Positions 14,138-62,867 of a stretch of DNA of 64,000 bases are shown here, piece by piece. The stretch is from Thermoanaerobaculia bacterium (GTDB lineage Bacteria > Acidobacteriota > Thermoanaerobaculia > Multivoradales > UBA5704). Position numbers and translations under genes: made by a program. The notes below the pieces were generated by a model. That model was not told the origin of the DNA. It did not search any database and was given only the letters and a program-made list of their open reading frames with translations. Every line of letters starts with the position of its first letter. The stretch's first letter is position 1. The stretch spans positions 26,498 through 90,497 of the forward strand of contig DASUEN010000222.1 of assembly GCA_036275055.1 (NCBI GenBank), written 5' to 3'.

Positions 14138-14370
14138 CTTTGCTGCCTGAGAGCGCCTCCGCCCAAGACCCTCATCCCCTGCCCCTTCTCCCGCATGCCC
14201 TCACCGGAGAAGGGGGCCCGGCCGAGGCGTTCTTGCTGCTCGTCCTTACCGTCCTTGGTGTCCTTTCCGTCCTTTCTTGGCTGTTCTCCCTCTTCTCCCG
14301 GTGAGGGGGATGTTGGGGGTCGGGAGAAGAGGGCCGGGGTGATGAGGGTCTTGGGCGGGGGGCGCCCTCC

Positions 14371-14587
14371 CCCAGCCGGGTACAGGCCTGTACCGGCCCG
14401 GTATACCCCCTTCCCCAGACAGGTACACCCCCGTACCCGTCGGGCACACCCCCCTCCCCAGACCGGTACGCCCCCCTCCCCAGATGGGTACACCCCCTCC
14501 CCGGCCCGGTACGCCCCCGTACCCGGCGGGTACACCCCCCTCCCCAGGCCGGTACGGCCCCGTACCCGTCGGGTATACCCCTCCCCC
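14371..14587. repeat. degenerate tandem repeat array (about 6 units of 21-43 nt) with GGTAC-centred (near-)palindromes
   Basis: Units AGRYSGGTACRCCCCC(+/-GTACCCGKCGGGYAYACCCC)CTCCCC. Perfect palindrome GGTACAGGCCTGTACC at 14379-14394. Near-palindromes GTACCCGGCGGGTAC and GGTACGGCCCCGTACC. Lies between the convergent hipA-like gene and the minus-strand gene ending at 14590. Confidence 0.7.
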
Positions 14588-36973: not shown

Positions 36974-36995
36974 GCGGGGATGATATCCGACGGTT

Positions 36996-38741
36996 TCACG
37001 GCAGCGTCAGGCTCGTCTCGGCCGTGGCGATCTTGCCGCTGATCGGATCGTAGACGGTCGCCACCAGGCGGTTTGCCTTCCCCTTGAGGGTGATCTTGGT
37101 TTCGTACTTGATGAAGCCGCCGGGTTTCGCCGGCTTCTCCGAGGTGATGTCGAGGGGGGCGACGGGGATCTTCGAGTCGTTGCCGGAATTGTCGGTCGCC
37201 GCGAACCGCAGCTCGGCGTGGGCCGCGTATTTGTTGCCCACCGGCACCAGCGTCACGACGTCGGAAGGCAGGCCGAGGGTGACCGGGATCTCCACCCCCG
37301 CCCGCGTGCGCACGGGCGTGCCGACCCGCATGGGCAGCGTCAGGCCGCCCGGCAGGTTGCCGAAGAGCAGGGAGCTCTCGGCCAGCATCGAGACCTCCGC
37401 CTTTTTCGACAGGTCGAGGAAGTCCGTCCGTGAGCGGACCTTGAGACCCGCTCTGGCGAGGGTGACCGCGATCTTGTGGCTCGCGTCGTTGCGCTCCCAG
37501 GTGGGGGAGAAGCCGAGCCAGTAGTAGGAGCGGGTGTCGGCCACGGCCGTGGTAAGGGCCACGAGGCGGTTGTCGTTGCGCAGGGGCTTGCCGCCGGTCT
37601 CCTGGGCCACGAACTCGAGGGTGCCTTTGATCTCCTGATCGCGGAACGATCCGTTCGCGGACCCGGACGCCCTCTTGGCCTCCTGATCGCGGAACGCCCC
37701 GGCCCTGGCCGGTGCCTCGATCCCCTGATCGAGGTACGATCCGCCCGCCTCTGTGATCGACGGATCGCCGGCTGACTGAACCCCGGGAACGTCGACGGGA
37801 TAGACGGTGAAGCCGAGGAGGTTGGCCGTGCTGGTGAGCTTCCTCAGGAGCTGGTCGCCGTCCTTGAGCTCCCGCGCGGCGGGCATCGCGGCGCCGCCGC
37901 GAATGTAGCTCTGAATCGAATACGGCCAGCCGCCGGCCAGGAGCAGCAGGACCTTGCGCCCCGGCGACGAGGCGAAGGTGCGCAGCGTCCGCGCCGCGGC
38001 GTTCACCACCCCTTCCTCCTGGCGGAAGAGCGTCTCGCCATAGGCCCGCTCCGGCAGGTTCAGGCCAGAGCTATCCATCCGGCTGGTGATGGAGAGGGGC
38101 GCGTTGTCGCCCACCGTCCCCCTGGCGAAGGTCTGGTCGTGCTGGAAGCTGTTGAATTCGGCGATCCGGTCGAGCCCCCGTGCCGGGCGGGTCATGGCTT
38201 GATCGAAGGCCCGGGCCAGCTCGCTCTGCGACTGCGACCAGCCCGAGACGATGGCGAGTCGGCCGCCGTCGTAGGCGACGATCGCCATGCGGTCCCCCGG
38301 GCCCAGGCGGGCGAGGTCGCCCTGCAAGGACTTGAGCACCTCGTTGCGCCGGGTCTCGGTGGAGAAGTATTCGTCGATGAACACGAGATAGCTGGTGCCC
38401 ACGGCGCCGCCTGGCTCCATGCCTGGAACGGCCACGGCGGCGGGGGCGCCCTCGGCCGCGGCCGGCGGCGCCACGGATTGCCCCCCGGCGACCTCGGTGA
38501 AGTAGGTGACGGGCACGTCCTTGCCGTCCACTTTCAGCTTGAAGTCGCCGGGTTTCAAGCCCGTGACCCGGTTGCCATCTTTATCGGTGATCACCACCTC
38601 GACGTTGACCACCCGCACCTCGACCGTCTCGCCGAAGACCGGGGGCTCCTGAGATGGAGACGGTTTCTGCTGCTGCGTGCGTGCGGGCACGCCAGCGAGG
38701 ATCCAGGCCAGGCAGAGAGCAGACAGGGCTGACTTCTTCAT
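36996..38741 (-). CDS. VWA-domain protein of the 'VWFA-related Acidobacterial domain' type (tandem paralog 1)
   Basis: ATG 38741 with GGGAGGT SD on the minus strand. MKKSALSALCLAWILAGVPA signal peptide. Conserved N-domain VVNVEVVITDKDGNRVTGLKPGDFKLKVDGKDVPVTYF. 581 aa. Confidence 0.75.
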   Translation of the reverse strand: MKKSALSALCLAWILAGVPARTQQQKPSPSQEPPVFGETVEVRVVNVEVVITDKDGNRVTGLKPGDFKLKVDGKDVPVTYFTEVAGGQSVAPPAAAEGAPAAVAVPGMEPGGAVGTSYLVFIDEYFSTETRRNEVLKSLQGDLARLGPGDRMAIVAYDGGRLAIVSGWSQSQSELARAFDQAMTRPARGLDRIAEFNSFQHDQTFARGTVGDNAPLSITSRMDSSGLNLPERAYGETLFRQEEGVVNAAARTLRTFASSPGRKVLLLLAGGWPYSIQSYIRGGAAMPAARELKDGDQLLRKLTSTANLLGFTVYPVDVPGVQSAGDPSITEAGGSYLDQGIEAPARAGAFRDQEAKRASGSANGSFRDQEIKGTLEFVAQETGGKPLRNDNRLVALTTAVADTRSYYWLGFSPTWERNDASHKIAVTLARAGLKVRSRTDFLDLSKKAEVSMLAESSLLFGNLPGGLTLPMRVGTPVRTRAGVEIPVTLGLPSDVVTLVPVGNKYAAHAELRFAATDNSGNDSKIPVAPLDITSEKPAKPGGFIKYETKITLKGKANRLVATVYDPISGKIATAETSLTLP

Positions 38742-38802
38742 GCCGTAACCTCCCAATGGCAGTTTCAAATAGTATAGGGCATCTTGCCGAGTCCCGCCCT
38801 CT

Positions 38803-40458
38803 TCAAGGCATCGTCAGGGCCGTTTCGGCCGTGGCGAGCTTGCCGCTCACGGGATCGTAGACGGTCGCCACCAGGCGGTTCGCCTTCCCCTTGAGGGTGA
38901 TCTTGGTCTCGTACTTGATGAAGCCGCCCGGCTTGGCGGGCTTGTCCGAGGCGATGTCGAGGGGGACGACGGGGATCTCGGAGCCGTTCCCCGTTTCGTC
39001 CGAGGCCGCGAAGCGGAGCTCGGCGTGCGCCGCGTATTTGTTTCCCACCTGCACCAGCGTCACCACGTCGGCGGGCAAGCCCAAGGTGATGGGGATCTCC
39101 GTGCCCCCCTTGACCTTCTTCAGTGCGCCGATGCGCAGGGGGAGCGGTGAGTCGCCCGGGAGGTTGCCGAAGAGCAGGGCGCTCTCGACCATCATCGTCA
39201 CTTCCGTCTTTTTCGACAGGTCGAGGAAGCTGTTGCGGGAGCGCACCTTGAGGCCCGGCTTGCTGACGCTCACGTCCACCTTGTGGCGCGCGTCGTTGTG
39301 CTCCCAGGAGGGGGAGAAGCCGAGCCAATAGTACGAGCGCGTGTCGCCTGCAGCCTTGGCGAGGGCCAGCGTCCGGTTGCCGGCGCGAAGAGTCGTGCCG
39401 CCGGTTTCCTGGGCCACGAAGTCGAGGGTGCCGGTGATCTCCTGGACGCGTGACGAGGTACTGGACTCGTCCGCCGACTGCAATCCCTGGCCGTCGATCG
39501 GGTAGACGGTGTAGCCGAGCAGGTTGGCCGTATTGGTCAGGTTGCGCAGCAGCTCTTCGCCGTCCTTGAACTCGCGCGAGGTCGAGGGCGCCGCATCGCC
39601 GCGGATGAAGCCCTGGATCGAGTACGGCCAGCCGCCGTCCAAAAGCAGCAGGACCTTGCGTCCCGGCGGCGCGGCGAAGGTGCGCAGCGTCCGCGCCACG
39701 GCGTTGACCACCCCCTGCTCCTGGCGGAAGAGGACCTCGCCGTACGCCTTCTCGCGCAGGTTGAGCTGCGAGAAGCCCTGCCGGGAGCTCGCGCTCGCCA
39801 GGTCCAGGGGCGCGCTGTCGCCGGCGGTGCCGCCGGCGAACTCCTCGTCGTGAGCGAACCGCTGGTACTCGACGATCCGGTCGAGCCCCCGCGGCCTGCG
39901 CCCCATGGCGTCGTCGAAGGCCCGTGCCAGTTGGGCCTGCGACTGCGACCAGTTGGAGATCATGGCGAGCCGGCCGCCGTCGTAGGTGACGATGGCCATG
40001 CGGTCCTCCGGACCCAAGCGGGCGAGGTCGCTCTTGAGCGAGCGGAGGATCTCGTTGCGTTTGACCTCGGTCGAAAAATAGTCGTCGATGAAGACGAGGT
40101 AGCTGGTACCCACGCCGCCGCCTGGCTCCACACCGGGAACGGCCGCGGTGGCGGGAGCGGGAGCACCCTCGGCCGCGGCCGGCGGCGCCACGGATTGCCC
40201 CCCGGCGACCTCGGTGAAGTAGGTGACGGGGACGTCCTTGCCGTCCACCTTCAGCTTGAAATCTCCCGGCTTCAAACCCGTGACCCGGTTGCCGTCCTTG
40301 TCGGTGACCACCACCTCGACGTTGACCACCCGCACCTCGAGAGTCTCGCCGAAGACCGGCGGCTCGGGAGCTTGGGGGGGCTTTTTCTGCTGTGCCAGGG
40401 CCGGCAGGCCGGCGACGGCCCAGGCCAGGCAGAGAGCAGAAAGGGCTGACTTCTTCAT
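38803..40458 (-). CDS. VWA-domain protein of the 'VWFA-related Acidobacterial domain' type (tandem paralog 2)
   Basis: ATG 40458 with GAGGAGGT SD. Near-identical N- and C-termini to paralog 1. 551 aa. Confidence 0.75.
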   Translation of the reverse strand: MKKSALSALCLAWAVAGLPALAQQKKPPQAPEPPVFGETLEVRVVNVEVVVTDKDGNRVTGLKPGDFKLKVDGKDVPVTYFTEVAGGQSVAPPAAAEGAPAPATAAVPGVEPGGGVGTSYLVFIDDYFSTEVKRNEILRSLKSDLARLGPEDRMAIVTYDGGRLAMISNWSQSQAQLARAFDDAMGRRPRGLDRIVEYQRFAHDEEFAGGTAGDSAPLDLASASSRQGFSQLNLREKAYGEVLFRQEQGVVNAVARTLRTFAAPPGRKVLLLLDGGWPYSIQGFIRGDAAPSTSREFKDGEELLRNLTNTANLLGYTVYPIDGQGLQSADESSTSSRVQEITGTLDFVAQETGGTTLRAGNRTLALAKAAGDTRSYYWLGFSPSWEHNDARHKVDVSVSKPGLKVRSRNSFLDLSKKTEVTMMVESALLFGNLPGDSPLPLRIGALKKVKGGTEIPITLGLPADVVTLVQVGNKYAAHAELRFAASDETGNGSEIPVVPLDIASDKPAKPGGFIKYETKITLKGKANRLVATVYDPVSGKLATAETALTMP

Positions 40459-40582
40459 GCCGTAACCTCCTCGTGACAGCTTAAGTATAAGGCATGCGTT
40501 GACGGCGGCGGCTCGGCTGGCTTACCTTGGCGGCTGCGGCCTGAGCGCCGGCCATATTCGAGCAGAGAAGGGAGCTCATCCG

Positions 40583-49541: not shown

Positions 49542-50285
49542 TTATGGCCGTGAGCGGTGGGGCCGCGCTTTTTGCGGTGCCGTCCGCTCGACGACCGGAG
49601 TTGGGCGCCCATTGTTCCCGAATCTCCAGAGGAAATACCCGCTTCCCCTCTGTACCTCTTCAAGCGGCAAGACTCGCTTGTAGTAGCTGACCAGATGTCT
49701 TAGTTCATGCTTGAAGAGTTGTTCTGCTGAGGGATCGCTGGGCTGATCGTCTGGCGCAGAATCGAACTGGAGGGGTACCGGCTGCATTACTGCAGCGTGC
49801 AGGCCGATCTTCTGCTGTAGGTATTCGGCGAGTGCTTTCGTGGCCTGGATACCAAGGCCGTTACCGGCGTACGAGGGACGCACCTCAAGCAGATGCATAA
49901 ATGCGATCGGTCCCAATCGAAGCATGCTAGTCACGTCTAGCTTGCGGGCGCTGAACAGAAGCGCGGCGAAATCGCAAAGTTCTTGGCTCTGCGCGTCACA
50001 GGCGTCGAAGAAGGTCCACCGGCTGACCTCTGCGTTCTCCTCAGTCTTCGCGAATATGTACCAGTGGAGATAACCTACGGCGACGCCATTCTGAGAATCG
50101 CGGATCTGCCCTTCGACCTCTTGAATTGAGATATCGTCCTCAAGCTCGTTCTCGATGTGAGCCAAATACCAGTTAAGGATTAGCCCAGGAGCAACGCTGA
50201 GCCTTTTGGAGCCGCGCTGTGGCGGAAGTTGCTCCCGTCGGTAGAACCCCAAGTGGTTACGCGAAGCAAGACGGGGGCTATTCAT
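49542..50285 (-). CDS. hypothetical protein, possible GNAT-family acetyltransferase
   Basis: 247 aa. VRPSYAGNGLGIQATKAL resembles the GNAT acetyl-CoA motif (Q/R-x-x-G-x-G/A). Lower-GC region. Confidence 0.4.
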   Translation of the reverse strand: MNSPRLASRNHLGFYRREQLPPQRGSKRLSVAPGLILNWYLAHIENELEDDISIQEVEGQIRDSQNGVAVGYLHWYIFAKTEENAEVSRWTFFDACDAQSQELCDFAALLFSARKLDVTSMLRLGPIAFMHLLEVRPSYAGNGLGIQATKALAEYLQQKIGLHAAVMQPVPLQFDSAPDDQPSDPSAEQLFKHELRHLVSYYKRVLPLEEVQRGSGYFLWRFGNNGRPTPVVERTAPQKARPHRSRP

Positions 50286-50901
50286 GAATCTGAAACCTTA
50301 AGGTGGCGCCGAACGTCTCAGAAGCTCACCGGCGACGACCGCACTATAGTGCGTGCTTGGCGGCGAAGCGATCTTGTCGCGAGATCCCCAACACCGTCCC
50401 GCTTCTCTCTCCCACTCTCCGGCTCCTCGAGTTCACGCCGCCACCAAAGCCGCACGAAAGGCATTCTACGAAATCTACGCCGCTTTCGTCAGCACTTTCC
50501 GTGAGGCGTCTGAGCGGCTGAGGCACGGTGATCGCAATGCGCCGTTCCCAGTCGGAAGCTTCCCGCCGGCCCTGCCCTTCGTGGCCGGATAGCAGCATCG
50601 CCGCCACTCTTTGACAGCCTCGTCGGCCGCCGAGGGCCACTCCTACGAGCTGATTCGCTCGCTTGAGTGGAGGTGTGCCCATTTCGGCCCGAAGTGGCTC
50701 GCTCCGGCCGCTGCCAGCACCCAATCCGCAGGTCCAAGCCCCGCACCAGCCGCGAAATCGTCTTGGGTTTCTAAAACTACGCTGGCACTTTTTACTCCGG
50801 GCACCTGCTATGCACTTCACCTTATTGACTCCCGCGCCATACCGAGAGATGCAATCGCTATCGAGAGTACTCCTGACGCACCTGAAGTTACCCGTGCGAG
50901 G

Positions 50902-53265
50902 TCACTTCCCAAGAAATATCTTGAGAGCACGCAAGAATGGTGCACCGTTCTCACTCTTACTAGAAGTCAGTGCCTGAAAAAAATCGCGATGCTTCCGCGT
51001 TTTCTGCACGCCCAGAGTTCGGAAGAACTCCAGTGCTACGCGTTCGGCAATCAAATCGCACGTCTGTCTCGCTTCTTCTGACAGAACTACTCCGTTTCTG
51101 TCTGCGGTCAAGGGCAATGCAAGAGGCGGAATGATGTTGATGTCGTAAGTGACAGGCAACGGGAAAGGCACAGTAGGCGGCTCTGAGTTGTGCGACCACG
51201 TAGAGCGCGATGGAAACAATGAATGACGCACCGTGAATCCATGCTGGCTCCAGCGTCCGGTAGAAGACGCATGAATGGAATAGCCATGGCTGATGCCTTC
51301 CTTGCTGGTGCGATCAACGTGCACATGCTCGATCGCCGACCATACATGACGGAGGCGGTCCGAGAGGTCCTCGCCATCCTCGCCAAATTCTTCCTCAAGG
51401 AACACCTCGTTAGTGAGGCCAGAAAGAAAATGAACACGCACTTCACCTTCAATCCCACTCTTCGGATCAAGCACAACGTCGACGTACGAGCAGCGTTCAT
51501 ACTCGTCACCCGCGCGTTGCACTGCCCAGCCTTGGGACAGTTGCGACGTTGCGCCATCGGGCTCGGCGACCTGAATGAGAACGTGCGTATGCGGAGCCAG
51601 AACCGCGACCGTAGAACTTAGCGTTGGCGTATCTTTGATACCGGACTTGAGCCACAGTTGCTTCGGGTCGGCGGATAAACGAACGGAGATATGCGTGCCC
51701 GGCGAAGCACGAGCGCTTTTATTGAACCAGAACAAACTGCCTTGGCTAGCGACCTGAATCGCAAGCGGCGTCGTATTGTTACCTATGCGTCGCGTGTCAA
51801 CCTCAAGCAGGTCTCCCACCATAAACACCGACAGAATACCGATCCCAAACTGAGAGACCGGCTTAAACTCCAACCCTACGCGTGCTCGGTGCTGCAAAAA
51901 CTCGCTAGACGTGTAATAGCTCCGGCCGACTCGCGCGAAGTAGTTGCGCACGATGGGTTCATCCATGCCCATGCCGTTGTCTTCTACGTCCATATACCAG
52001 TAACCGTCGCTCTGCCTACAACTCACTCGCACGATGGGCTCATACGGGCCGAGTTCAGGCTGGCGCCGGTGCAAAGCATCCCGGTGCCGACACGAATCTA
52101 CCGCATTTTGAAGCAACTCACGTAAAAACAGAATTGGCGTTCGATATAGATTCAACCCCATGAGGAGGCTGGTGATACGATCCTCATCCAACGAGAACCC
52201 GATATCGAGATACGTATACCGCGGCCCAGCCGGTCCGAACTCGGCACGAACGTCTACGGTCGAAACTTCCAGAGGTAAGTCTAGAGCATAGTGCGCCGAC
52301 AGAGCGTTCACGGCTGGGTCGTGCATGCCAGCAAGCACGCTGCGCACACCTCGAAGTTCCCGCTCGATCATTCGCACAAAGTCTCGGACACACTTCTCGA
52401 TGACCGGGTCTGAGCACTGTGCAGCAAATGCTATTCGCGTCGGCTGAATGTCCCAGGCCGTAATGGCTCGATGCTTCTTCCACTCTCTCACGCTTACCGA
52501 GTCACGGATCCCAAGGTGCTCAAACAGGACGGCCGGAGTGCGCTTGGGGTCGAAGTCCAGAATATCGGCGAGCCGAAGCACGCAAGCAACAAAACGCCAG
52601 TTGCAATACTCGCCACCCGCACGGACGAGTTCGCGCGCGGGTATCGCGTTGACGGAGGACGCGTCTTCATTATGACTGAAGCAGACATCTGCTAGCCGGC
52701 TGGTAAAGTTATAGTTGTCGTAGACGAGTTTGTTGCCATAGCTCTCAAAGAGCAGCTTGCTAGCGCGCGCAGCATGAGTTCTACGCAAGTACTCAACGAG
52801 AAGTCCAGCCTCGATCTCCTGAGCCTCGAAGTGACGCTCGGCATGCCTAAGGGAAGCTTGCCGCTTCAGGAGCCCTGGATATGCTTCTCGAAGCGCGAGG
52901 TACTGCTGTTTTTCCTCTATCGTCGGGTCTGCGTCTGAGGAGAGGAGCGCACGCACCTCAGCATCCGACGGCGCCATCCCAATATCATGGTAGGCCGCAC
53001 TCAATATCAGCGCAGCAAGTTCAAGAGCATCCAATTTGCTGAGCGTGCGCTCAGGAATGACGCGTCCCATGAGCCTGACGACCTCAACCAGATGCACCTC
53101 GTCATGCAAGGTGTACTCTGGCATATGCTTCACAACCGTCTTGGTCCGCTGGATGGCGTCGTCAAAGCATTCTTCGACGGTGAGCAGCAGTCGATTGGCG
53201 GCGCGGTCGTCGCTAGCCTTCGTAGCCAGGAGTTGGTAGAGCGTAAGGTCGCGCAGGGTGGACAT
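50902..53265 (-). CDS. HD-domain phosphohydrolase fused to GHKL/HATPase_c (Hsp90-like) ATPase
   Basis: 787 aa. HD: YTLHDEVHLVEVVRLM ... AALILSAAYHDIGM. Bergerat fold: LRELLQNAVDSC (N-box), MDVEDNGMGMDEPIVRNYFARVGRSYY (G1), QFGIGILSVFMVGD (G2). Low-GC island. Confidence 0.75.
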   Translation of the reverse strand: MSTLRDLTLYQLLATKASDDRAANRLLLTVEECFDDAIQRTKTVVKHMPEYTLHDEVHLVEVVRLMGRVIPERTLSKLDALELAALILSAAYHDIGMAPSDAEVRALLSSDADPTIEEKQQYLALREAYPGLLKRQASLRHAERHFEAQEIEAGLLVEYLRRTHAARASKLLFESYGNKLVYDNYNFTSRLADVCFSHNEDASSVNAIPARELVRAGGEYCNWRFVACVLRLADILDFDPKRTPAVLFEHLGIRDSVSVREWKKHRAITAWDIQPTRIAFAAQCSDPVIEKCVRDFVRMIERELRGVRSVLAGMHDPAVNALSAHYALDLPLEVSTVDVRAEFGPAGPRYTYLDIGFSLDEDRITSLLMGLNLYRTPILFLRELLQNAVDSCRHRDALHRRQPELGPYEPIVRVSCRQSDGYWYMDVEDNGMGMDEPIVRNYFARVGRSYYTSSEFLQHRARVGLEFKPVSQFGIGILSVFMVGDLLEVDTRRIGNNTTPLAIQVASQGSLFWFNKSARASPGTHISVRLSADPKQLWLKSGIKDTPTLSSTVAVLAPHTHVLIQVAEPDGATSQLSQGWAVQRAGDEYERCSYVDVVLDPKSGIEGEVRVHFLSGLTNEVFLEEEFGEDGEDLSDRLRHVWSAIEHVHVDRTSKEGISHGYSIHASSTGRWSQHGFTVRHSLFPSRSTWSHNSEPPTVPFPLPVTYDINIIPPLALPLTADRNGVVLSEEARQTCDLIAERVALEFFRTLGVQKTRKHRDFFQALTSSKSENGAPFLRALKIFLGK

Positions 53266-53546
53266 TTGAAGCGAGCTTACAGCAACGCTGCCATGCCACG
53301 CAACTTCAACGATCGCTGATCCGTCGAGCGGAGAGGGCGCGCTGCCGCCTTACGCGGTCGACTCGTGACCCGCGCTGCGGCCCCCCGATGCGTTCAAAGA
53401 ATTCCCATTTTGACGGCGATAGCCGCGCCACCTGGGGCAACCGTGTCGGCCGGTCATGCCAGGCTGGGAGTTCAACACCTCGTCCGCCCAACGCCTTGAC
53501 GCCTCACCGATGGACGGCGGAGACGGCCGCTCGGTGCAGGCGGGGG

Positions 53547-54260
53547 TTAAGCGGTGCCACGGCCTCGACTTGCGCCGGTATGCTGAAAGTTGTATAGTGT
53601 CTTTCGGCTAGGAAGAAGCTCTTCTGGGTAGGCTCCACCCTCCAGGATCTGCGAGCTTTCCCAGAAGCTGCCAGACGCCTCGCAGGCCATGAGCTGCACC
53701 TGGTTCAACAAGGGCTTGATCCGGATGACTGGAAGCCCATGACCAGCGTGGGGCCCGGTGTCCAGGAGCTGCGGATACACACCGGCGTGGAGCATCGGGT
53801 CTTCTACTTGGCGAAGTTCGAAGAAGGAGTATAGGTAGTTGCCTTCCAGGTATGGATCACCGCGCAGGTCAATGTAGACCTTTCCTCGTAGGATTGAGGT
53901 AGCCGCCTCTCTCCAGTCACCTGACCGAAGTAGGGGAACGAACTTCCTGTCGTTGCGTTCAGTCATCACTTCGGCCGTAATGATATGTCCTTCGTAGCCG
54001 ACGCCACCTATGCGTCGATCTGACTTCTCTTTGTACTTAGGAGTGCAGACCATGAGGACGAAGTCACTGTCTCGTATTGCAGTTTCCATAAACTGAGGCA
54101 GCTGATCCCCGGGAGCAACCTTCCACTCGTCCAAGATCAGATCGATGCCGTCACTGCGGAGACGGGCACCAAGCCTCTTGACCCATTCCTTATGCTCCTC
54201 GCTATCCCACGAGTACGAGATGAATGCCGTGGGTATCTGCTTAAGAAGTTCGCTTGTCAC
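53547..54260 (-). CDS. TIR-domain protein (bacterial TIR_2-like)
   Basis: GTG start at 54260; no in-frame ATG nearby. AFISYSWDSEEHKEWVKRLGARLRSDGIDLILDEWKVAPGDQL..FMETAIRDSDFVLMVCTPKY = canonical TIR core. 237 aa. Sits upstream of the HD-GHKL gene on the same strand with a 281-nt gap. Confidence 0.7.
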   Translation of the reverse strand: MTSELLKQIPTAFISYSWDSEEHKEWVKRLGARLRSDGIDLILDEWKVAPGDQLPQFMETAIRDSDFVLMVCTPKYKEKSDRRIGGVGYEGHIITAEVMTERNDRKFVPLLRSGDWREAATSILRGKVYIDLRGDPYLEGNYLYSFFELRQVEDPMLHAGVYPQLLDTGPHAGHGLPVIRIKPLLNQVQLMACEASGSFWESSQILEGGAYPEELLPSRKTLYNFQHTGASRGRGTA

Positions 54261-54410
54261 GGTCGACTCTTGTGCCGTTTAACGGGATCGGGCCTGGCGC
54301 CGCCAAGCATCCGCTTGAGGCCCTGTGTTAGGCGTCGGGCCACAAGCGGTGATGTTTTGCATGTGTTGCATTACTGCAACCCGATGCGACCGCGGCTAGC
54401 AGCCGTCATC

Positions 54411-54800
54411 TCAGTGCCTCGTAGAAGGTGTGCACGAAACTGTGCATGCGGAATACGGCGAAAGGCTCTCAAGCTGCCAGCCCTGGTCATAAAGTCTGTA
54501 GACGATCATGAGATTCGTGCTTAGTACGCAAGGTGTACCGTAGAATGGATCCTCGCTTTCGAGGTTGACGGCTGCATAGATCGTATCATTACCGGCGCGC
54601 CGGTTTGTAGATCGCCGTATCAGCTGCCAGCTGCTGACTGCCTGGACGGTGTTGACGTGCGGTATGAACTGGTTGCCGCAGCGGAGTTGCTGCCCGACCA
54701 GGTCAGCTTGCATGCGGGTTTCGCTGGTTAACGGTCTCAGGTAGCCGCAGTCGAGGAGAAGCAACGCGGTTCCTAAGAGAGCAACTTTCCACTGGATCAT
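54411..54800 (-). CDS. hypothetical secreted protein
   Basis: ATG 54800 with GAGGA upstream (track start 54812 is TTG). MIQWKVALLGTALLLLDCGYL signal-like. 129 aa. Confidence 0.35.
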   Translation of the reverse strand: MIQWKVALLGTALLLLDCGYLRPLTSETRMQADLVGQQLRCGNQFIPHVNTVQAVSSWQLIRRSTNRRAGNDTIYAAVNLESEDPFYGTPCVLSTNLMIVYRLYDQGWQLESLSPYSACTVSCTPSTRH

Positions 54801-54889
54801 TGGCGTCCTCAATAAGTCAGAAATAGAGCAGGCGATGATCCCTGCGTTTAGTCTTAAGTTCGCCCTCGGCTACTACGTTGCCGGCCGAC

Positions 54890-56988
54890 GCCGCCGAGTA
54901 GGCCAGGGGCCCTTACGGGCCCCCAGCCCCTCTAAGAACCGTACGTGCGAGTTTCCCCGCATACGGCTCAAGCCTTTCAGAAGGCCGATTGCTCGACCCG
55001 GCTGTTGGGTTGTCCGGGTTGACTCGTTCCATGGCCGTGAGTGGTTTCCTACGAGCTCGGAGCCCGAGCCGGCCTTGACGCTTCCGCAGCCAACGCTGGT
55101 AGAAGTACTCGTCGTAGGCAGGATCGTACTCCCTGGCTTCGGCTCGTATCTTAACATGCCGGCGAATCGGCATGCTACTCACCCGAAACAGGTCCAGAGA
55201 CCCCCAGGTCCCGTCCCGGTTCCGGAGAGGCGCCGTGAAGGTCCACCGACCGGAGGGCTCGATGCGGAAGTATTTCTGTCGCACCCAGCCTTTCCCCTTG
55301 GTGGGGTGCCTTCTCTTCGCCCATCGCCATAGAGCTTCGAAGACGCGCTTATCTACATATCGAAAGGCCCGACTGGAGACCAGGTGTCTCTGGCTGTTCG
55401 CCCAACCTCGCAGCTTGCTGTTGAGCCGGCGAATCAAGTCCAGAGCCGTGGCCGCCTTCTGGGTTCGGATCACTTCCCGGACATTCCGCAGCAGACCCAG
55501 GACGTTGTCCTTCGACGGCCTGATCAGCAGCTTGCGTCCATACTTCCGGACGTTGGCTCCGAGAAAGTCGAATCCAGCCTCGATCTGCGTGATCTTCGTC
55601 TTCTCCTGTGAGAGATTCAGACCCCGTTCTGCGAGGAAGGCAGCTACCGCAGGCAAGACTTTCTCCTCCAACTGCTCTCGCGAGCGGCCGGTGATGACAA
55701 AGTCGTCTGCGTAGCGCACCACGTTGATCTTCGGGCGGAGGTTCCCCTGACGGCGGGAATCCGCCTGCAAGGCCACCGTTTCCAGGCCATCCAAGGCTAG
55801 GTTCGCTAGAACCGGGGAGATGATTCCTCCCTGGGGCGTACCTTCCTCGGTCGAATAGAGGACCGGGCCTTCCATGTAGCCGGCCTTCAGCCATTTCCGC
55901 AGGATGTCGCGGTCCATTTGGACGTTGCCGAGCAGCCAGCGGTGGCTGATCCGATCGAAGCAGGATTCGATATCCCCTTCGAGGATCCACTGGGGAGAAT
56001 CCTCTTTGGCCAACGCACAGTAGCACTGGCCCAAGGCATCGGCGGTTGAACGCCGCGGCCGGAAGCCGTAGGAGTTCAGGTCGGCCTGGGTTTCCGCCAC
56101 CGGAAGCAGCGCCAGCAGGTGAAGCGCCTGCATGGCTCGATCCTTCATCGTAGGGATTCCCAGGGGCCGACGCTTGCCGTTCCTTTTGGGGATGTAGAGC
56201 CTGCGCAGAGGCAGTGGCTTGTAGCCAAACCGCCTCAGAGATCGGGAGGCCTGCATCTTCTGCCGAGGCGTTTTCCAGAGAACCTTGTCAACGCCCGGCG
56301 TACGTTTCCCTTGATTGGAGACAACCCTTCGCACCGCCCAGAGCTTTGCCGCCCATGAGCGGGTGAGGAGCCGCTGGAGAAAGTGGACCTTGCCCCAGCA
56401 CTTCTCGTGTACAGCCTTTGCGATACGCACCTGCAGCCGTCTGACCTTACGGAAGATGGCACGCCAGTCGATGGCGTTCCAGTTCTCTCGCCAGACCGGG
56501 AGTGCACCGGCGTCAAGCGCCTCTCTTTGCTCTCTCCCTTTCCAAGACGGTTCCACAAGCTCTCTCGCAACGAAAGACCTGTCGGACGTGGGCTCACTTT
56601 CGTGCCGGGTAACGTTGAAACCCGTATCCGCCCCATTACAGGACGGCCTTCGCTTCTTCCGACATCCCAAGCCCGCACCTCCGTCAGTTCCCCTCACGGG
56701 TCGCCTTCCCTTTACGGGAGGAGATACAGGGTTACCACGTTCCGCTCCTGAAGTCTGTGCGGGGTTAGGTACCTGCTGTCGACCGGGAAGCGCTGTTGAC
56801 CACGAGGTGGCACCGTTAAATCCACCTCCGGCTTCCGCGCCTTTTGGCTCAAGCTTATCAGCCACTTTAGCTCGTGCTCCATGACGGTCGTTGCACAGGT
56901 TCACATGCGTTTACCCTACCCGCTACCTAGCCATCGCCCGGCTCGTGGCTGCCAGGAGAGCAGGTTCCTCACGGTCCCTGCCCCGCAC
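54890..56988 (-). mobile_element. bacterial group II intron (about 2.1 kb) with intron-encoded RT/maturase
   Basis: 5' end GTGCG on minus strand (complement of plus 56984-56988). Canonical domain V GAGCCGTATGCGGGGAAACTCGCACGTACGGTTC at 54936-54969 (minus). Domain VI hairpin with GTAA tetraloop at about 54895-54930. Domain I-like sequence (GAGCCAAAAGGCGCGGAAGCCGGAGGTGGATTTAACGGTGCC) upstream of the ORF. Confidence 0.8.
54913..56556 (-). CDS. group II intron reverse transcriptase/maturase (IEP)
   Basis: Likely GTG start about 56556 (VEPSWKGREQ... precedes the NWNAIDWRAIFRKVRRLQVRIAKA thumb-0 motif). RT motifs include YADDFVITG; maturase X domain. No En domain. The frame stays open through domain V/VI to 54913. 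The track ORF 54913..56904 over-extends at the N-terminus into domain I. Confidence 0.8.
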   Translation of the reverse strand: MEPSWKGREQREALDAGALPVWRENWNAIDWRAIFRKVRRLQVRIAKAVHEKCWGKVHFLQRLLTRSWAAKLWAVRRVVSNQGKRTPGVDKVLWKTPRQKMQASRSLRRFGYKPLPLRRLYIPKRNGKRRPLGIPTMKDRAMQALHLLALLPVAETQADLNSYGFRPRRSTADALGQCYCALAKEDSPQWILEGDIESCFDRISHRWLLGNVQMDRDILRKWLKAGYMEGPVLYSTEEGTPQGGIISPVLANLALDGLETVALQADSRRQGNLRPKINVVRYADDFVITGRSREQLEEKVLPAVAAFLAERGLNLSQEKTKITQIEAGFDFLGANVRKYGRKLLIRPSKDNVLGLLRNVREVIRTQKAATALDLIRRLNSKLRGWANSQRHLVSSRAFRYVDKRVFEALWRWAKRRHPTKGKGWVRQKYFRIEPSGRWTFTAPLRNRDGTWGSLDLFRVSSMPIRRHVKIRAEAREYDPAYDEYFYQRWLRKRQGRLGLRARRKPLTAMERVNPDNPTAGSSNRPSERLEPYAGKLARTVLRGAGGP

Positions 56989-57411
56989 GCTTGCGCGTGC
57001 CTCTGTACATTGTCAGGGCCGCTCTTTATTCAGGCCCCTAGGTTCACCCGGTGGTACGGGTGGTTTCACCTCCTACTTCGAGAGAAACAACTTCATATTA
57101 AGAGCGACATTGTGTCGCAGTAACGCCTCTGAAGCTCACCGGGCGGCAAGTGCGCAAAGCGCGGTTGCCGCCCGGTGTAGCGCTGTGGTTGGCCGTCCCT
57201 CCTTGAAACTGCCTAATAATTGCACAGACTGCTGGCTTTTCAAGGAGAGGTTAGCCTTTCTGTATATGGAATTGTTGGTCACCGATTCCCAAGTTTTAGT
57301 TCTTGGAGAGTACGTCCAACGTTGTTAGACTTAAAGTCCTCAGCCCGTTTGCTTACATCTGCTGCCACCATCTTCCATTGCTTGTCGAACGGGTCATATT
57401 TAAGGAGAACT

Positions 57412-57993
57412 TTAAGGCGCCGGTCCCGAGCATGGTCCCAACCTCGGGCTCTCGAAGGCCGCTGACATTTCATCCGGCACGTCGTAAGTATACGTCCCAA
57501 GCACCACTCTATATCGATCCGTTCCCACAACTTCCTCATCGTTGGAAACGATGCTCTCGATCTTTATGGTAGCAACTTTCGTGAACAGCTCATCGAAGTC
57601 GCCATTATGCTTGATAGTGCCGGCCTTACCGCCGCCCTCAGTTAGTTTGATCGTCGCAGTCTTCCTGACACCGCTCTGAGTAAGGCTGAACCAATCGTTC
57701 CAACCGCTGAAATTCTGCGTCAGATCCTTAACATTGCCGATAGTGATCACGCCTTTCTTTGCAAAGGCTTGGTACAAAGGCCACTCACTGATAGATTCTC
57801 GGCCTTTCGCTGCGTCTGGATTCTCAGCGACGAACTTCACCTCACCCAGCATCAACCCAACGTCTGGCTTATTCCAGAGATTCTCTATCAAATTCCGTGC
57901 TTCGCCATCTCCAAGGGCATCGGACCGGGAACAATAACTCAGGGCGACTGCGCTAACAACAATACCTACCAGGCGTAAACTTCGTCCAATCAT
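57412..57993 (-). CDS. hypothetical secreted/lipoprotein-like protein
   Basis: ATG 57993 with AGGAGA SD on minus. MIGRSLRLVGIVVSAVALSYCS signal. 193 aa. Low-GC island. Confidence 0.45.
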   Translation of the reverse strand: MIGRSLRLVGIVVSAVALSYCSRSDALGDGEARNLIENLWNKPDVGLMLGEVKFVAENPDAAKGRESISEWPLYQAFAKKGVITIGNVKDLTQNFSGWNDWFSLTQSGVRKTATIKLTEGGGKAGTIKHNGDFDELFTKVATIKIESIVSNDEEVVGTDRYRVVLGTYTYDVPDEMSAAFESPRLGPCSGPAP

Positions 57994-58435
57994 CGTATCG
58001 TCTCCTGTACAACTGAACTCGTGGCCAACCTCAAGATCAACTGTATCCGGCTCCTCCCCAATGCCTTCCCGACAGTCTCCACGTCTGCTCAGGCTACCGG
58101 TGAATGGGATGTATATCATTCATTCTATGGAGTGTAAGCATTGTACACCGATCCCTAATCCTCGTCAACGTTGGTTGGGTTGTCGGGTTGGAGCCTGGCC
58201 GCGCGGAGCGGCACAAAACTTAGCCAGACCGGTTTCCGGTGGCCTATTCTACTGATGAGAATGAAGTTAGCACCGCCCGTACCGGCTAAGCGGTTCGAAG
58301 TGCGGGGCGAGTGGAACGTTATCCGACAAAGGAGTGTCGGGTTTGCAGCTCATGGTTGGTGCTAAGCTCAATGGAATGAGACTCATCGGCTGAGCTGGCG
58401 CGATGATTGACCGACACGACGCCTGTCGGCTAAGG

Positions 58436-58739
58436 GCTCGTCACAGAATAACTGTGCCAGTTTGCGTCCGGCCCAACGGGCCTGGATACCTTAGCCCAGG
58501 GCCGAGGCCGAAGGCCGATGCCCTGGGAAAAAGGCGCCCCATCGGTGCGGCCTGAAGGGCCGCAAATCGTTTCGACAAGAAGAGTATCGCTGCCCTTCAG
58601 GCCGCACTGCTTTGGGATCCTGCCACCCAGGGCGTCGGCCTTCGGCCTCGGCCCTGGGCTAAGGTATCCAGGCCCGTTGGGCCAGACGCCCTAGTAGGAC
58701 TGAGCTCCGGGGAACTGGCGCAGTTATTCTGTGACGAGC
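58436..58739. repeat. about 300-bp near-perfect palindrome: two about 95-115 nt inverted arms (about 95% identical apart from a 22-nt indel) around a spacer with a nested 16-bp IR
   Basis: Arm 1 58436-58527 and arm 2 58627-58739 are reverse complements. The inner IR GTGCGGCCTGAAGGGC / GCCCTTCAGGCCGCAC is at 58544-58607. Each arm also has internal hairpins (CCCAGGGC...GCCCTGGG; GGCCCaacGGGCC). Confidence 0.8.
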
Positions 58740-58809
58740 CCTAAGAGGCCGTCGCCAAGCCGACAGAGGAATGGGAGGGGCCTTTCTCGGCGCGCCAAGC
58801 CGGTCAAGC

Positions 58810-59012
58810 TACAGGATGTCCACGGGGCTCCTTACGCCACGCCCGTCTCGGTTGAGCACGCGGGTGTAGATCATCGTCGTTTTCACGGTCTTGTGACCCA
58901 GGAGCTCCTGCAGGGTCCGGAAGCGGAGCTCGTTGCCTTCGGGACGCCGGCGCTCCCAGGCAATGGCCCTCGGACAGGTTTTGCCGGAATGGACGTTCCT
59001 TGAGGAGGGGTG
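58810..59012 (-). pseudogene. C-terminal remnant of an integron-integrase-like tyrosine recombinase (IntI/XerC-like)
   Basis: The minus frame between two in-frame TAG stops translates to ...[40 protein letters not shown]. This is very similar to the IntI C-terminus (LGHSDVSTTMIYTHVL..GGAGVRSPLD). No start codon, and the upstream 250+ aa are missing. Confidence 0.6.
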
Positions 59013-59132
59013 CTACCCTCCCCTGGCCGCCTCAGGGAGTACGAGGCTCCGGTTCTCTCCTCGTTCCGGGGTCCGAGCTGCGTAGCAAGCTCCCGAGCTC
59101 ATGGGTTGAGGCTCCGCAACAGTGTTCCTGGA

Positions 59133-59360
59133 ACCAAACACATTGTAGGAGCTTCCCAACACATTGTGGTAGCGTTCCCCAACAATGTAGTTCGGCCCAG
59201 CAACAATGTGGTTGGGCTCACCAACAATGTGTTTCGGCCCAGCAACAATGTTGGGGAACCAAAACACATTGTTGCTGGCGCTCCCCACATTGTGTTTTGG
59301 CTCTCCCACAATGGGTCGGGCCCCAGCAACAATGTGTGCAGCCGCTCCAACATTGAGGCG
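59133..59360. repeat. iteron-like array: 11 copies of a 21-bp repeat with (C/A)ACAATGT / ACATTGT core in mixed orientation, perfectly phased
   Basis: Cores at 59140, 59161, 59182, 59203, 59224, 59245, 59266, 59287, 59308, 59329, 59350. Spacing is exactly 21 bp. The ACAATGT and ACATTGT cores are reverse complements of each other. Confidence 0.8.
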
Positions 59361-59458
59361 GGAGGTTTTTTCACCAGGGTGGGACGCTGCACCGACGTGG
59401 GGAAGCCCGCTTCCATTGGGTGCGGCGAGTTTTTCAATGGGATGAAGCGGTGACCGCT

Positions 59459-62582: not shown

Positions 62583-62700
62583 ACGGCAGGGCCCTTTCTT
62601 CCCGGTTCCCCACCAACCTGCCCCGCGGTGCGAAAGCCCCGCGGGGTAGCACGTTGTAGGGGGTATTTGGCGAATTCGGTCGCGACGGCCGGCCTCCCCC

Positions 62701-62824
62701 GCCCGGGCATAAATACCCGGGCTAAGAACGACGCCGGATGAATCCGGCTTGCAAAGTCCCCTTCTCAGGGAGAAGCCCCCTTGAGGGGGCGCTGTTCATA
62801 GCCCCGGCATTTATGCCCGGGCGA
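62701..62824. repeat. structured intergenic element: 22-bp inverted repeats (GCCCGGGCATAAATACCCGGGC / CCCGGCATTTATGCCCGGGC) flanking three consecutive short hairpins
   Basis: IR arms 62701-62722 and 62803-62824. Internal hairpins GCCGGAtgaaTCCGGC, CTTCTCaggGAGAAG, GCCCCCttgaGGGGGC. Lies between convergent tonB-like and PP2C genes. Confidence 0.6.
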
Positions 62825-62867
62825 AGGTGGGTGCCGCGACTGGGTTGCGCACTTTCCAGCTACCCTC

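Follow-up and report, generated by a model that had tools for sequence, protein, structure and literature searches.

A long foldback sequence in a Thermoanaerobaculia genome is most likely a MITE dependent on an ISAzo13-family insertion sequence

The palindrome in the 64-kb window (the whole stretch of Thermoanaerobaculia DNA that was analyzed, 64,000 nucleotides) is, with a probability of roughly 90%, a MITE dependent on an insertion sequence (IS) of the ISAzo13 family. The initial annotation had offered several readings of this sequence, among them a recombination site or attC-like substrate, IS200/IS605-type ends, a MITE and a structured RNA. The MITE is the reading that the data favor: the sequence is bounded by terminal inverted repeats and by a direct duplication of TAA, members of its family are dispersed through many genomes, and its ends are common to elements that carry a transposase gene.

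A repeat search of the window found a real foldback where it had first been reported, and resolved it into three nested inverted repeats that make up 308 bp (Table 1). The arms are near reverse complements, as described, with two mismatches in the 64 nt of the middle pair, and the spacer between them is indeed roughly 100 nt long. An inner inverted repeat is present as well; its length, originally given as 16 bp, was measured as 19 nt at 95% identity. The hairpins said to lie inside each arm were also recovered, for example GGCCCAACGGGCC and CCCAGGGC...GCCCTGGG. When the end bases were read one by one, they gave ...GGC TAA / GGGCTCGTCACAGAATAACTG ... CAGTTATTCTGTGACGAGCCC / TAA GAGG.... The outermost bases are therefore a direct repeat and not an inverted one (C TAA / GGGCTCG ... 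CGAGCCC / TAA G), which places the element proper at 58434–58741. Its left and right terminal inverted repeats match at 28 of 29 positions, and beyond the two TAA copies the flanking sequence reads CCTGTCGGC on the left and GAGGCCGTCG on the right. The element has no coding capacity; it contains two ORFs, of 50 and 58 aa, and neither has a Pfam match.

Table 1. Coordinates of the element, its parts and its neighbors in the window (TSD, target-site duplication).
Feature	Position	Strand	Evidence or remark
HD-CE + HATPase protein	50902-53265	-	in low-GC stretch
TIR-domain protein	53547-54260	-	in low-GC stretch
Group II intron, complete-looking	54893-57063	-	Rfam RF02012 (76 bits) and RF00029 (64 bits) flank RT/maturase ORF
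Group II intron RT/maturase ORF	54913-56904	-	TIGR04416, 349.9 bits
235-aa ORF	57412-58119	-	its promoter-like site, 58168-58140, is the one nearest to the element, ~270 bp away
Outer arms	58430-58462 / 58713-58745		repeat search; 33 nt, 94% complementary
Left TSD copy, TAA, within target C-TAA-G	58431-58433	.	direct sequence reading and family statistics
Left terminal inverted repeat, GGGCTCGTCACAGAATAACTGTGCCAGTT	58434-58462	+	first 19 nt recur without mismatch at each end of the L074 autonomous IS
Middle arms	58464-58527 / 58626-58689		repeat search; 64 nt, 97% complementary, 98 nt apart
Left long arm	58464-58527	+	pairs with 58626-58689; local hairpins GGCCCAACGGGCC; CCCAGGGC-CGAGGCCGAAGGCCGA-TGCCCTGGG
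Central spacer, 98 nt, with conserved central hairpin	58528-58625	.	stems 58545-58563 / 58589-58607
Inner inverted repeat	58545-58563 / 58589-58607		repeat search; 19 nt, 95%
Right long arm	58626-58689	+	97% complementary to 58464-58527
Right subterminal module, CCTAGTAGGACTGAGCTCCGGGG	58690-58712	+	extra 23 nt, right arm only; short version of a module found in all family members
Right terminal inverted repeat	58713-58741	-	reverse complement = GGGCTCGTCACAGAATAACTGCGCCAGTT
Right TSD copy, TAA	58742-58744	.	direct sequence reading and family statistics
Integrase remnant stop codon	58809-58811	-	64 bp from element; remnant lies outside element
C-terminal remnant (~37 aa) of integron-type tyrosine recombinase	58812-58922	-	TIGR02249 best model, E=1.4e-12, last 36 residues only
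21-bp tandem array	59134-59356	.	ACAATGT/ACATTGT core; between integrase remnant and DUF2750 gene

The duplication was assessed across the family, with ends scored with the element read as GGGCTCG...CGAGCCC. TAA or TTA abuts 62 of the 73 ends in the genome set, where the flanking triplets of two-ended copies were identical (direct) in 13 cases and reverse-complementary in 2. In the metagenome set, ∼11 pairs were direct against 1 inverted, and the direct ones include the non-canonical ATA/ATA and CTA/CTA. The triplet is thus not part of the inverted repeat, since TAA would then pair with TTA. A logo built from 122 unique flanks gave C at 66%, T at 86%, W at 95% and A at 95% just outside GGGCTCG, with no information beyond. 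Taken together with the direct triplets, the logo identifies the target as the palindrome CTWAG, whose central TWA is duplicated, in insertion contexts that are otherwise unrelated. The window copy matches this target exactly (C TAA ... TAA G). An exact search of metagenome contigs for the reconstructed empty site CCTGTCGGCTAAGAGGCCGTCG gave no match, and the neighboring 235-aa protein has no exact match on record. Because no empty site was found for the window insertion, we infer its mobility from the evidence at the family level.

Searching for additional copies, the check that had been proposed for a MITE, was decisive, and the terminal repeat was found at more than 100 public loci with TWA duplications. 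Using an exact 19-mer from the element end as the query, we found 50 loci in a collection of species-representative genomes (49 of them in Acidobacteriota, mostly Thermoanaerobaculia MAGs) and 51 further loci in metagenome contigs, where a few matches would be expected by chance. Single MAGs (SMAG_U3506 and MFD00413) hold at least 10 loci each, and 18 of 19 copies lie outside GC3-supported ORFs. Many copies are found at contig ends, as expected of a repeat that breaks assemblies. Viral contigs yielded no match to the family, and the terminal-repeat query found a single weak match in the plasmid collection, beside an unannotated ISAzo13-like gene. Within the 64-kb window there was no further copy when up to 3 mismatches were allowed; multi-copy status is thus demonstrated for the relatives, the window's own genome being seen over 64 kb with one copy.

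At many loci, paired ends lie 115–430 bp apart. Loci that seemed to be single-ended are foldbacks of ∼250–270 bp in which the second end has diverged, and they align with one another in both orientations. An all-against-all comparison of the genome loci revealed no long shared repeat, and other subfamilies have the same ends around different foldback interiors. Approximately 12 distinct full-length homologues, 320–345 bp long and 75–80% identical to the window copy, have its architecture. Read from the left, they consist of the terminal repeat, an optional left module TGATCGAGTCAAC... (7 of 12), the hairpin GGCCCAACGGG, the long arm AGCCCAGGGC.GAGGCCGAAGGCCGATGCCCTGGG, a spacer, the central hairpin, a second spacer, the mirrored arm, a right module of 23–40 nt (12 of 12) and the other terminal repeat. 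The left module is missing from the window copy, as from 5 of the 12, and so is part of the right module. The window copy is also more symmetric than the family consensus. What had been described as a 22-nt insertion in one arm is therefore no insertion; it is the right module, present in every distinct homologue. The nearest relative of the window copy is the one at locus L088 (80%), and the two have the variant GATACCTTAG / CTAAG..TCCAG in common.

The recurrence of this architecture also bears on the concern, raised from the outset, that the palindrome is a chimeric or collapsed product of assembly. Chimeric reads and assembly-graph errors can create perfect palindromes; here, however, the arms are not identical (2 mismatches in 64 nt, plus the asymmetric 23-nt module), and the ∼12 homologues with the same nested organization come from independent assemblies of different projects, including OY970373.1 and OY970330.1, whose records are titled complete MAG chromosomes. 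We therefore give an artifact practically no credence. Long palindromes were also said to be rare in chromosomes, but in this clade that is not so: foldback elements of several subfamilies are common. Other, unrelated imperfect palindromes lie between genes at 62693–62830 of the window (58-nt arms, 74%) and at L007:6984–7198 (36-nt arms, 94%, with a nested pair), and they suggest that these genomes hold several families of foldback repeats.

Five loci (L074, L055, L082, L063 and L052) have an ISAzo13-family transposase gene bounded by the terminal repeat. The element at L074:14–1308 (1295 bp) has the same 19-nt ends on both sides, is flanked by TAA/TAA, and is almost filled by a 410-aa ORF whose product matches NF033519 transpos_ISAzo13 with 602.7 bits (cut-off 200) and PF07592 (DDE_Tnp_ISAZ013) with 486.7 bits (cut-off 26.9; E=3e-146). 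L055:71–1366 (1296 bp) has the same 19-nt ends and TTA/TTA, and its transposase shares 89% aa identity with that of L074. At L082 and L063, elements of 1315 and 1330 bp encode transposases with 67% and 61% aa identity that adjoin the same end. The fifth locus, L052, is on the Methylocystis sp. MJC1 plasmid NZ_CP107559.1 (∼136077–136990); its terminal repeat differs at 2 of 19 positions and has a TAA flank, and its homologue of the transposase, ISAzo13-like with 60% aa identity across 285 residues, does not appear among the annotated genes of the plasmid and is possibly a pseudogene. Since the 1.3-kb elements with the same ends encode a DDE transposase of the ISAzo13 family, we conclude that an ISAzo13-family IS is the autonomous parent. 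All transposase-bearing copies are on unbinned metagenome contigs or on an alphaproteobacterial plasmid. A tblastn search with the parent transposase found no ISAzo13 transposase in the window, and none adjoins the 50 loci of the genome collection. ISAzo13 is among the least characterized IS families, and the indexed literature that mentions it describes no MITE derivative. ISAzo13-like transposases have been paired with the eukaryotic Zator superfamily (PMC5718144).

The ends and the parent bear on a second suggestion, namely that the palindrome is an IS200/IS605-type end, or else a palindrome-associated element (PATE) or REP-like sequence, handled by a Y1 (HUH) transposase that acts on single strands. 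A dispersed repeat with strong hairpins, both subterminal and internal, would fit such an origin. Terminal inverted repeats are absent from elements of these kinds, and their insertion duplicates no target sequence. The window element has such repeats as well as a duplication, its ends match those of a DDE element of the ISAzo13 family, and no TnpA, TnpB or RAYT gene adjoins any copy examined. These observations exclude the IS200/IS605 option as it was first put, and leave the chance of any such Y1-handled element close to nil.

A further relative, at L027:1298–2157 (860 bp), has the same ends and TAA/TAA and encloses two genes, one for a nucleotidyltransferase (MNT) and the other a HEPN gene with a frameshift. 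This makes it a mobile insertion cassette whose passenger is of the toxin-antitoxin type, and it shows that such ends can mobilize unrelated DNA. The gene upstream of the L027 element uses the duplicated TAA as its stop codon. The 374-aa ORF at L007:3382–4506, located upstream of a family copy, continues into the terminal repeat and stops at the TAA within ...ACAGAATAA; there, the family copy gives the host gene its last residues and its stop codon. The idea, taken from L027, that the element targets stop codons was rejected, as 12 of 52 ends fit it compared with 20% of background CTAAG sites.

We propose that a DDE transposase supplied from elsewhere, by a 1.3-kb IS such as that of L074, would recognize the ∼19–29-bp terminal inverted repeats and move the element into a CTWAG target by means of a 3-nt staggered cut, the repair of which would duplicate the central TWA (here TAA). 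The element itself encodes nothing, and its GC-rich foldback interior is unrelated to the parent IS. Mobilization in trans, the chemistry of the cut and the origin of the interior are inferences, whereas the terminal repeats, the direct duplication, the target consensus, the dispersed copies, the ends common to transposase-bearing elements and the lack of coding capacity were observed. On this reading, the window copy landed at a non-essential site in a low-GC island, 64 bp downstream of the stop codon of an integron-type integrase gene that has decayed, and it is presumably still mobilizable.

The position next to this integrase had been noted at the start and is correct, as is the resemblance to IntI, TIGR02249 being the best model for the remnant. 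It raises the possibility that the palindrome is an integron attC site, or another recombination site of the integrase, left as a single-strand-folding relic of an integron whose adjoining intI has decayed. Like attC sites, the element is an imperfect palindrome that can adopt a single-strand fold, and the fold predicted for the region is strong. There are also heptamers that conform to RYYYAAC (GCCCAAC, 58471) and GTTRRRY (GTTGGGC, 58676), ordered as expected for R'' and R'. In addition, a second locus, L002, has such a remnant beside a family copy. However, attC sites are ∼57–141 bp long, and the element, at 308 bp with 212 bp spanned by the R'' and R' motifs, is 2–5 times too long. The stems around its heptamers are perfectly paired, with no extrahelical bases and no unpaired central spacer, the features by which attC folding is defined. 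There is no cassette array; outside the element, the window contains no match to its terminal repeat or to its arm motif, and a scan of the whole window for R''/R' motifs found no complementary pair at attC spacing. Moreover, the element has the ends of a DDE transposon and a TSD, and its relatives, on 122 unrelated flanks with TWA duplications, have dispersed independently of integrases. An attC or other integrase site is, in our judgment, highly improbable.

The L002 locus is the only other one with such a remnant beside a family copy. Its integrase remnant (∼1340–1565) is 71% identical to that of the window and is followed, after 24 bp, by a member of the window copy's MITE subfamily, 180 bp long, in which the center between the arms has been lost. 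Common ancestry of the two remnant-plus-MITE loci was considered and rejected, because their flanks are unrelated, their orientations opposite and their spacings different. Given an independent insertion in L002 and a family dispersed among unrelated flanks, the link between element and integrase is positional, not functional. Both insertions probably went into decaying mobile DNA, where they could be tolerated.

The conservation of the arms is more than the MITE reading alone would lead one to expect. Folded as RNA, the element reaches −302 kcal/mol on the + strand and −292 kcal/mol on the − strand, compared with ∼−164±6 for shuffles, which corresponds to z-scores of ∼−21.7 and ∼−22.5, respectively. 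Pairwise identity between copies is 92–95% in the arms and central stem (87–95% for the left long arm), 77% in the left terminal repeat, and 45–74% in spacers, bulges and loops. Neither recent spread alone nor the neutral decay of selfish DNA would give such uneven conservation, which argues for some constraint or protection on the arms. In an alignment of 14 sequences, 97.7% of cells were paired and ∼70 of 110 pairs were invariant. Both-sided changes occurred at 7 of the 110 pairs, compared with 2.4±1.2 in shuffles, and 1 of 500 shuffles reached the observed value; this is a weak signal, which relatedness or arm-to-arm correction could produce.

These properties could mean that the foldback, besides being a MITE, has been co-opted or kept for a structural role, either as a transcribed hairpin RNA (a terminator, a stabilizer or an RNase III substrate) or as a protein-binding cruciform. 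Such a role would account for the near-invariant sequence of the arms, and it agrees with the concentration of identity in arms and central stem, the near-complete pairing, the excess of both-sided changes over shuffles and the fold z-score of ∼−21. It also agrees with a compensating block in the window copy, which reads CTGGATACCTTAG / CTAAGGTATCCAG against the consensus TCGGGAGAnCnCAG / CTCCGTTCTCCCGG. On the other hand, the RNAalifold covariation term is ∼0 and ∼70 of the 110 pairs never vary, relatedness alone can exceed the shuffle control, and arm-to-arm correction in a palindrome could yield compensating changes without selection. Rfam searches, run over the whole window at the gathering threshold and over 57–60 kb with E allowed up to 10, returned only the group II intron and spurious microRNA-hairpin matches. 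There is no promoter-like or terminator-like site within the element, and the orientation of copies to neighboring genes (∼9:3 upstream and 6:4 downstream, with duplicates removed and crude gene calls) is not significant. Finally, other subfamilies have different foldback interiors between the same ends. The structured RNA proposed in the initial annotation thus finds no backing in Rfam or in covariation, and we consider a structural role of the foldback unlikely. It is also rather unlikely, on the same pattern of identity, that the conserved arms and central stem are a functional module, whether for the ISAzo13 transposition machinery (a hairpin-dependent step or a site for a host factor) or as a transcribed hairpin co-opted by the host (a terminator, a stabilizer or an RNase III substrate). 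If they were, this would be a MITE family with a conserved structured payload and not a simple deletion derivative.

The element, most likely a MITE, lies near the right edge of a stretch of lower GC content (∼9 kb, window ∼50000–59400; 52–62% compared with ∼70%) that looks like an island. In addition to the TIR-domain protein and the HD-CE + HATPase protein, this stretch encodes a GNAT-like protein and several ORFs without a family match; the content could be defense-related cargo. The group II intron is in the same stretch, ∼1.4 kb from the palindrome. The element has no apparent effect on neighboring genes. Over ∼1.5 kb, nucleotide identity between the window and a contig of SMAG_U4286, a Thermoanaerobaculia MAG, is 81–83%. 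The genes on either side of the element are also present in Logan run SRR25158407.

Several other repeats were observed in passing. Intergenic arrays with a 21–22-bp period, similar to that downstream of the integrase remnant, occur at 14365–14587 of the window, at L007:5150–5440 and at L002:∼440–545, and their units differ in related MAG loci. Arrays of this period break short-read assemblies (L001 ends in one), and a look-up of the DUF2750 protein found its sole match on a 3.4-kb contig that ends in a 21-bp array. At 36995–40470 of the window, two tandem units of ∼1.7–1.8 kb, 77–87% identical to each other, are probably adjacent paralogous genes.

Read as a MITE, the conspicuous palindrome becomes ordinary mobile DNA, and a link to integron recombination that was tempting but mistaken falls away. 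For one clade, the uncultured Thermoanaerobaculia, the analysis defines ISAzo13 ends (GGGCTCGTCACAGAATAAC), a 3-bp TWA duplication and a palindromic CTWAG target, together with a set of MITE subfamilies and a cassette that carries MNT-HEPN cargo. Because ISAzo13 is so little characterized, this is of modest value for research on mobile DNA. There is also a practical side: with so many copies at contig ends, contigs of these soil Acidobacteria often break at members of the family, and repeat libraries for the annotation of these genomes should mask it.

Among known systems, the closest are the bacterial MITEs, such as Correia/NEMIS of Neisseria, RUP of Streptococcus, Nezha of cyanobacteria and those derived from IS630 and IS5. 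Like these, the window element is short (308 bp) and non-coding, has terminal inverted repeats common to an autonomous IS and a short TSD, can fold into a long hairpin, and belongs to a family with many dispersed, mostly intergenic copies. It differs in that its parent is an ISAzo13-family IS and its hosts are uncultured Thermoanaerobaculia, in that its interior is unrelated to the parent, and in that its arms are more conserved from copy to copy than its left terminal repeat. With ISAzo13 elements proper (DDE_Tnp_ISAZ013, NF033519), it has in common the terminal 19 nt, identical to those of L074 and L055, the 3-bp duplication and the TWA target. Lacking a transposase gene and measuring 308 bp compared with ∼1300 bp, it is not a strict member of that family, only a dependent derivative. 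Mobile insertion cassettes (MICs), such as the IS231-related MIC231 of Bacillus cereus, have their counterpart in the relative at L027, in which passenger genes (MNT-HEPN) replace the transposase between the same ends and duplication; the window copy, in contrast, has no passenger gene. The eukaryotic Tourist / PIF-Harbinger MITEs are also foldback structures with a 3-bp TWA (TAA/TTA) duplication and G-rich termini, all of which recur in the window element. This likeness is an analogy only, since those elements belong to another domain of life and depend on the PIF/IS5-like transposase superfamily rather than on an ISAzo13/Zator-like one.
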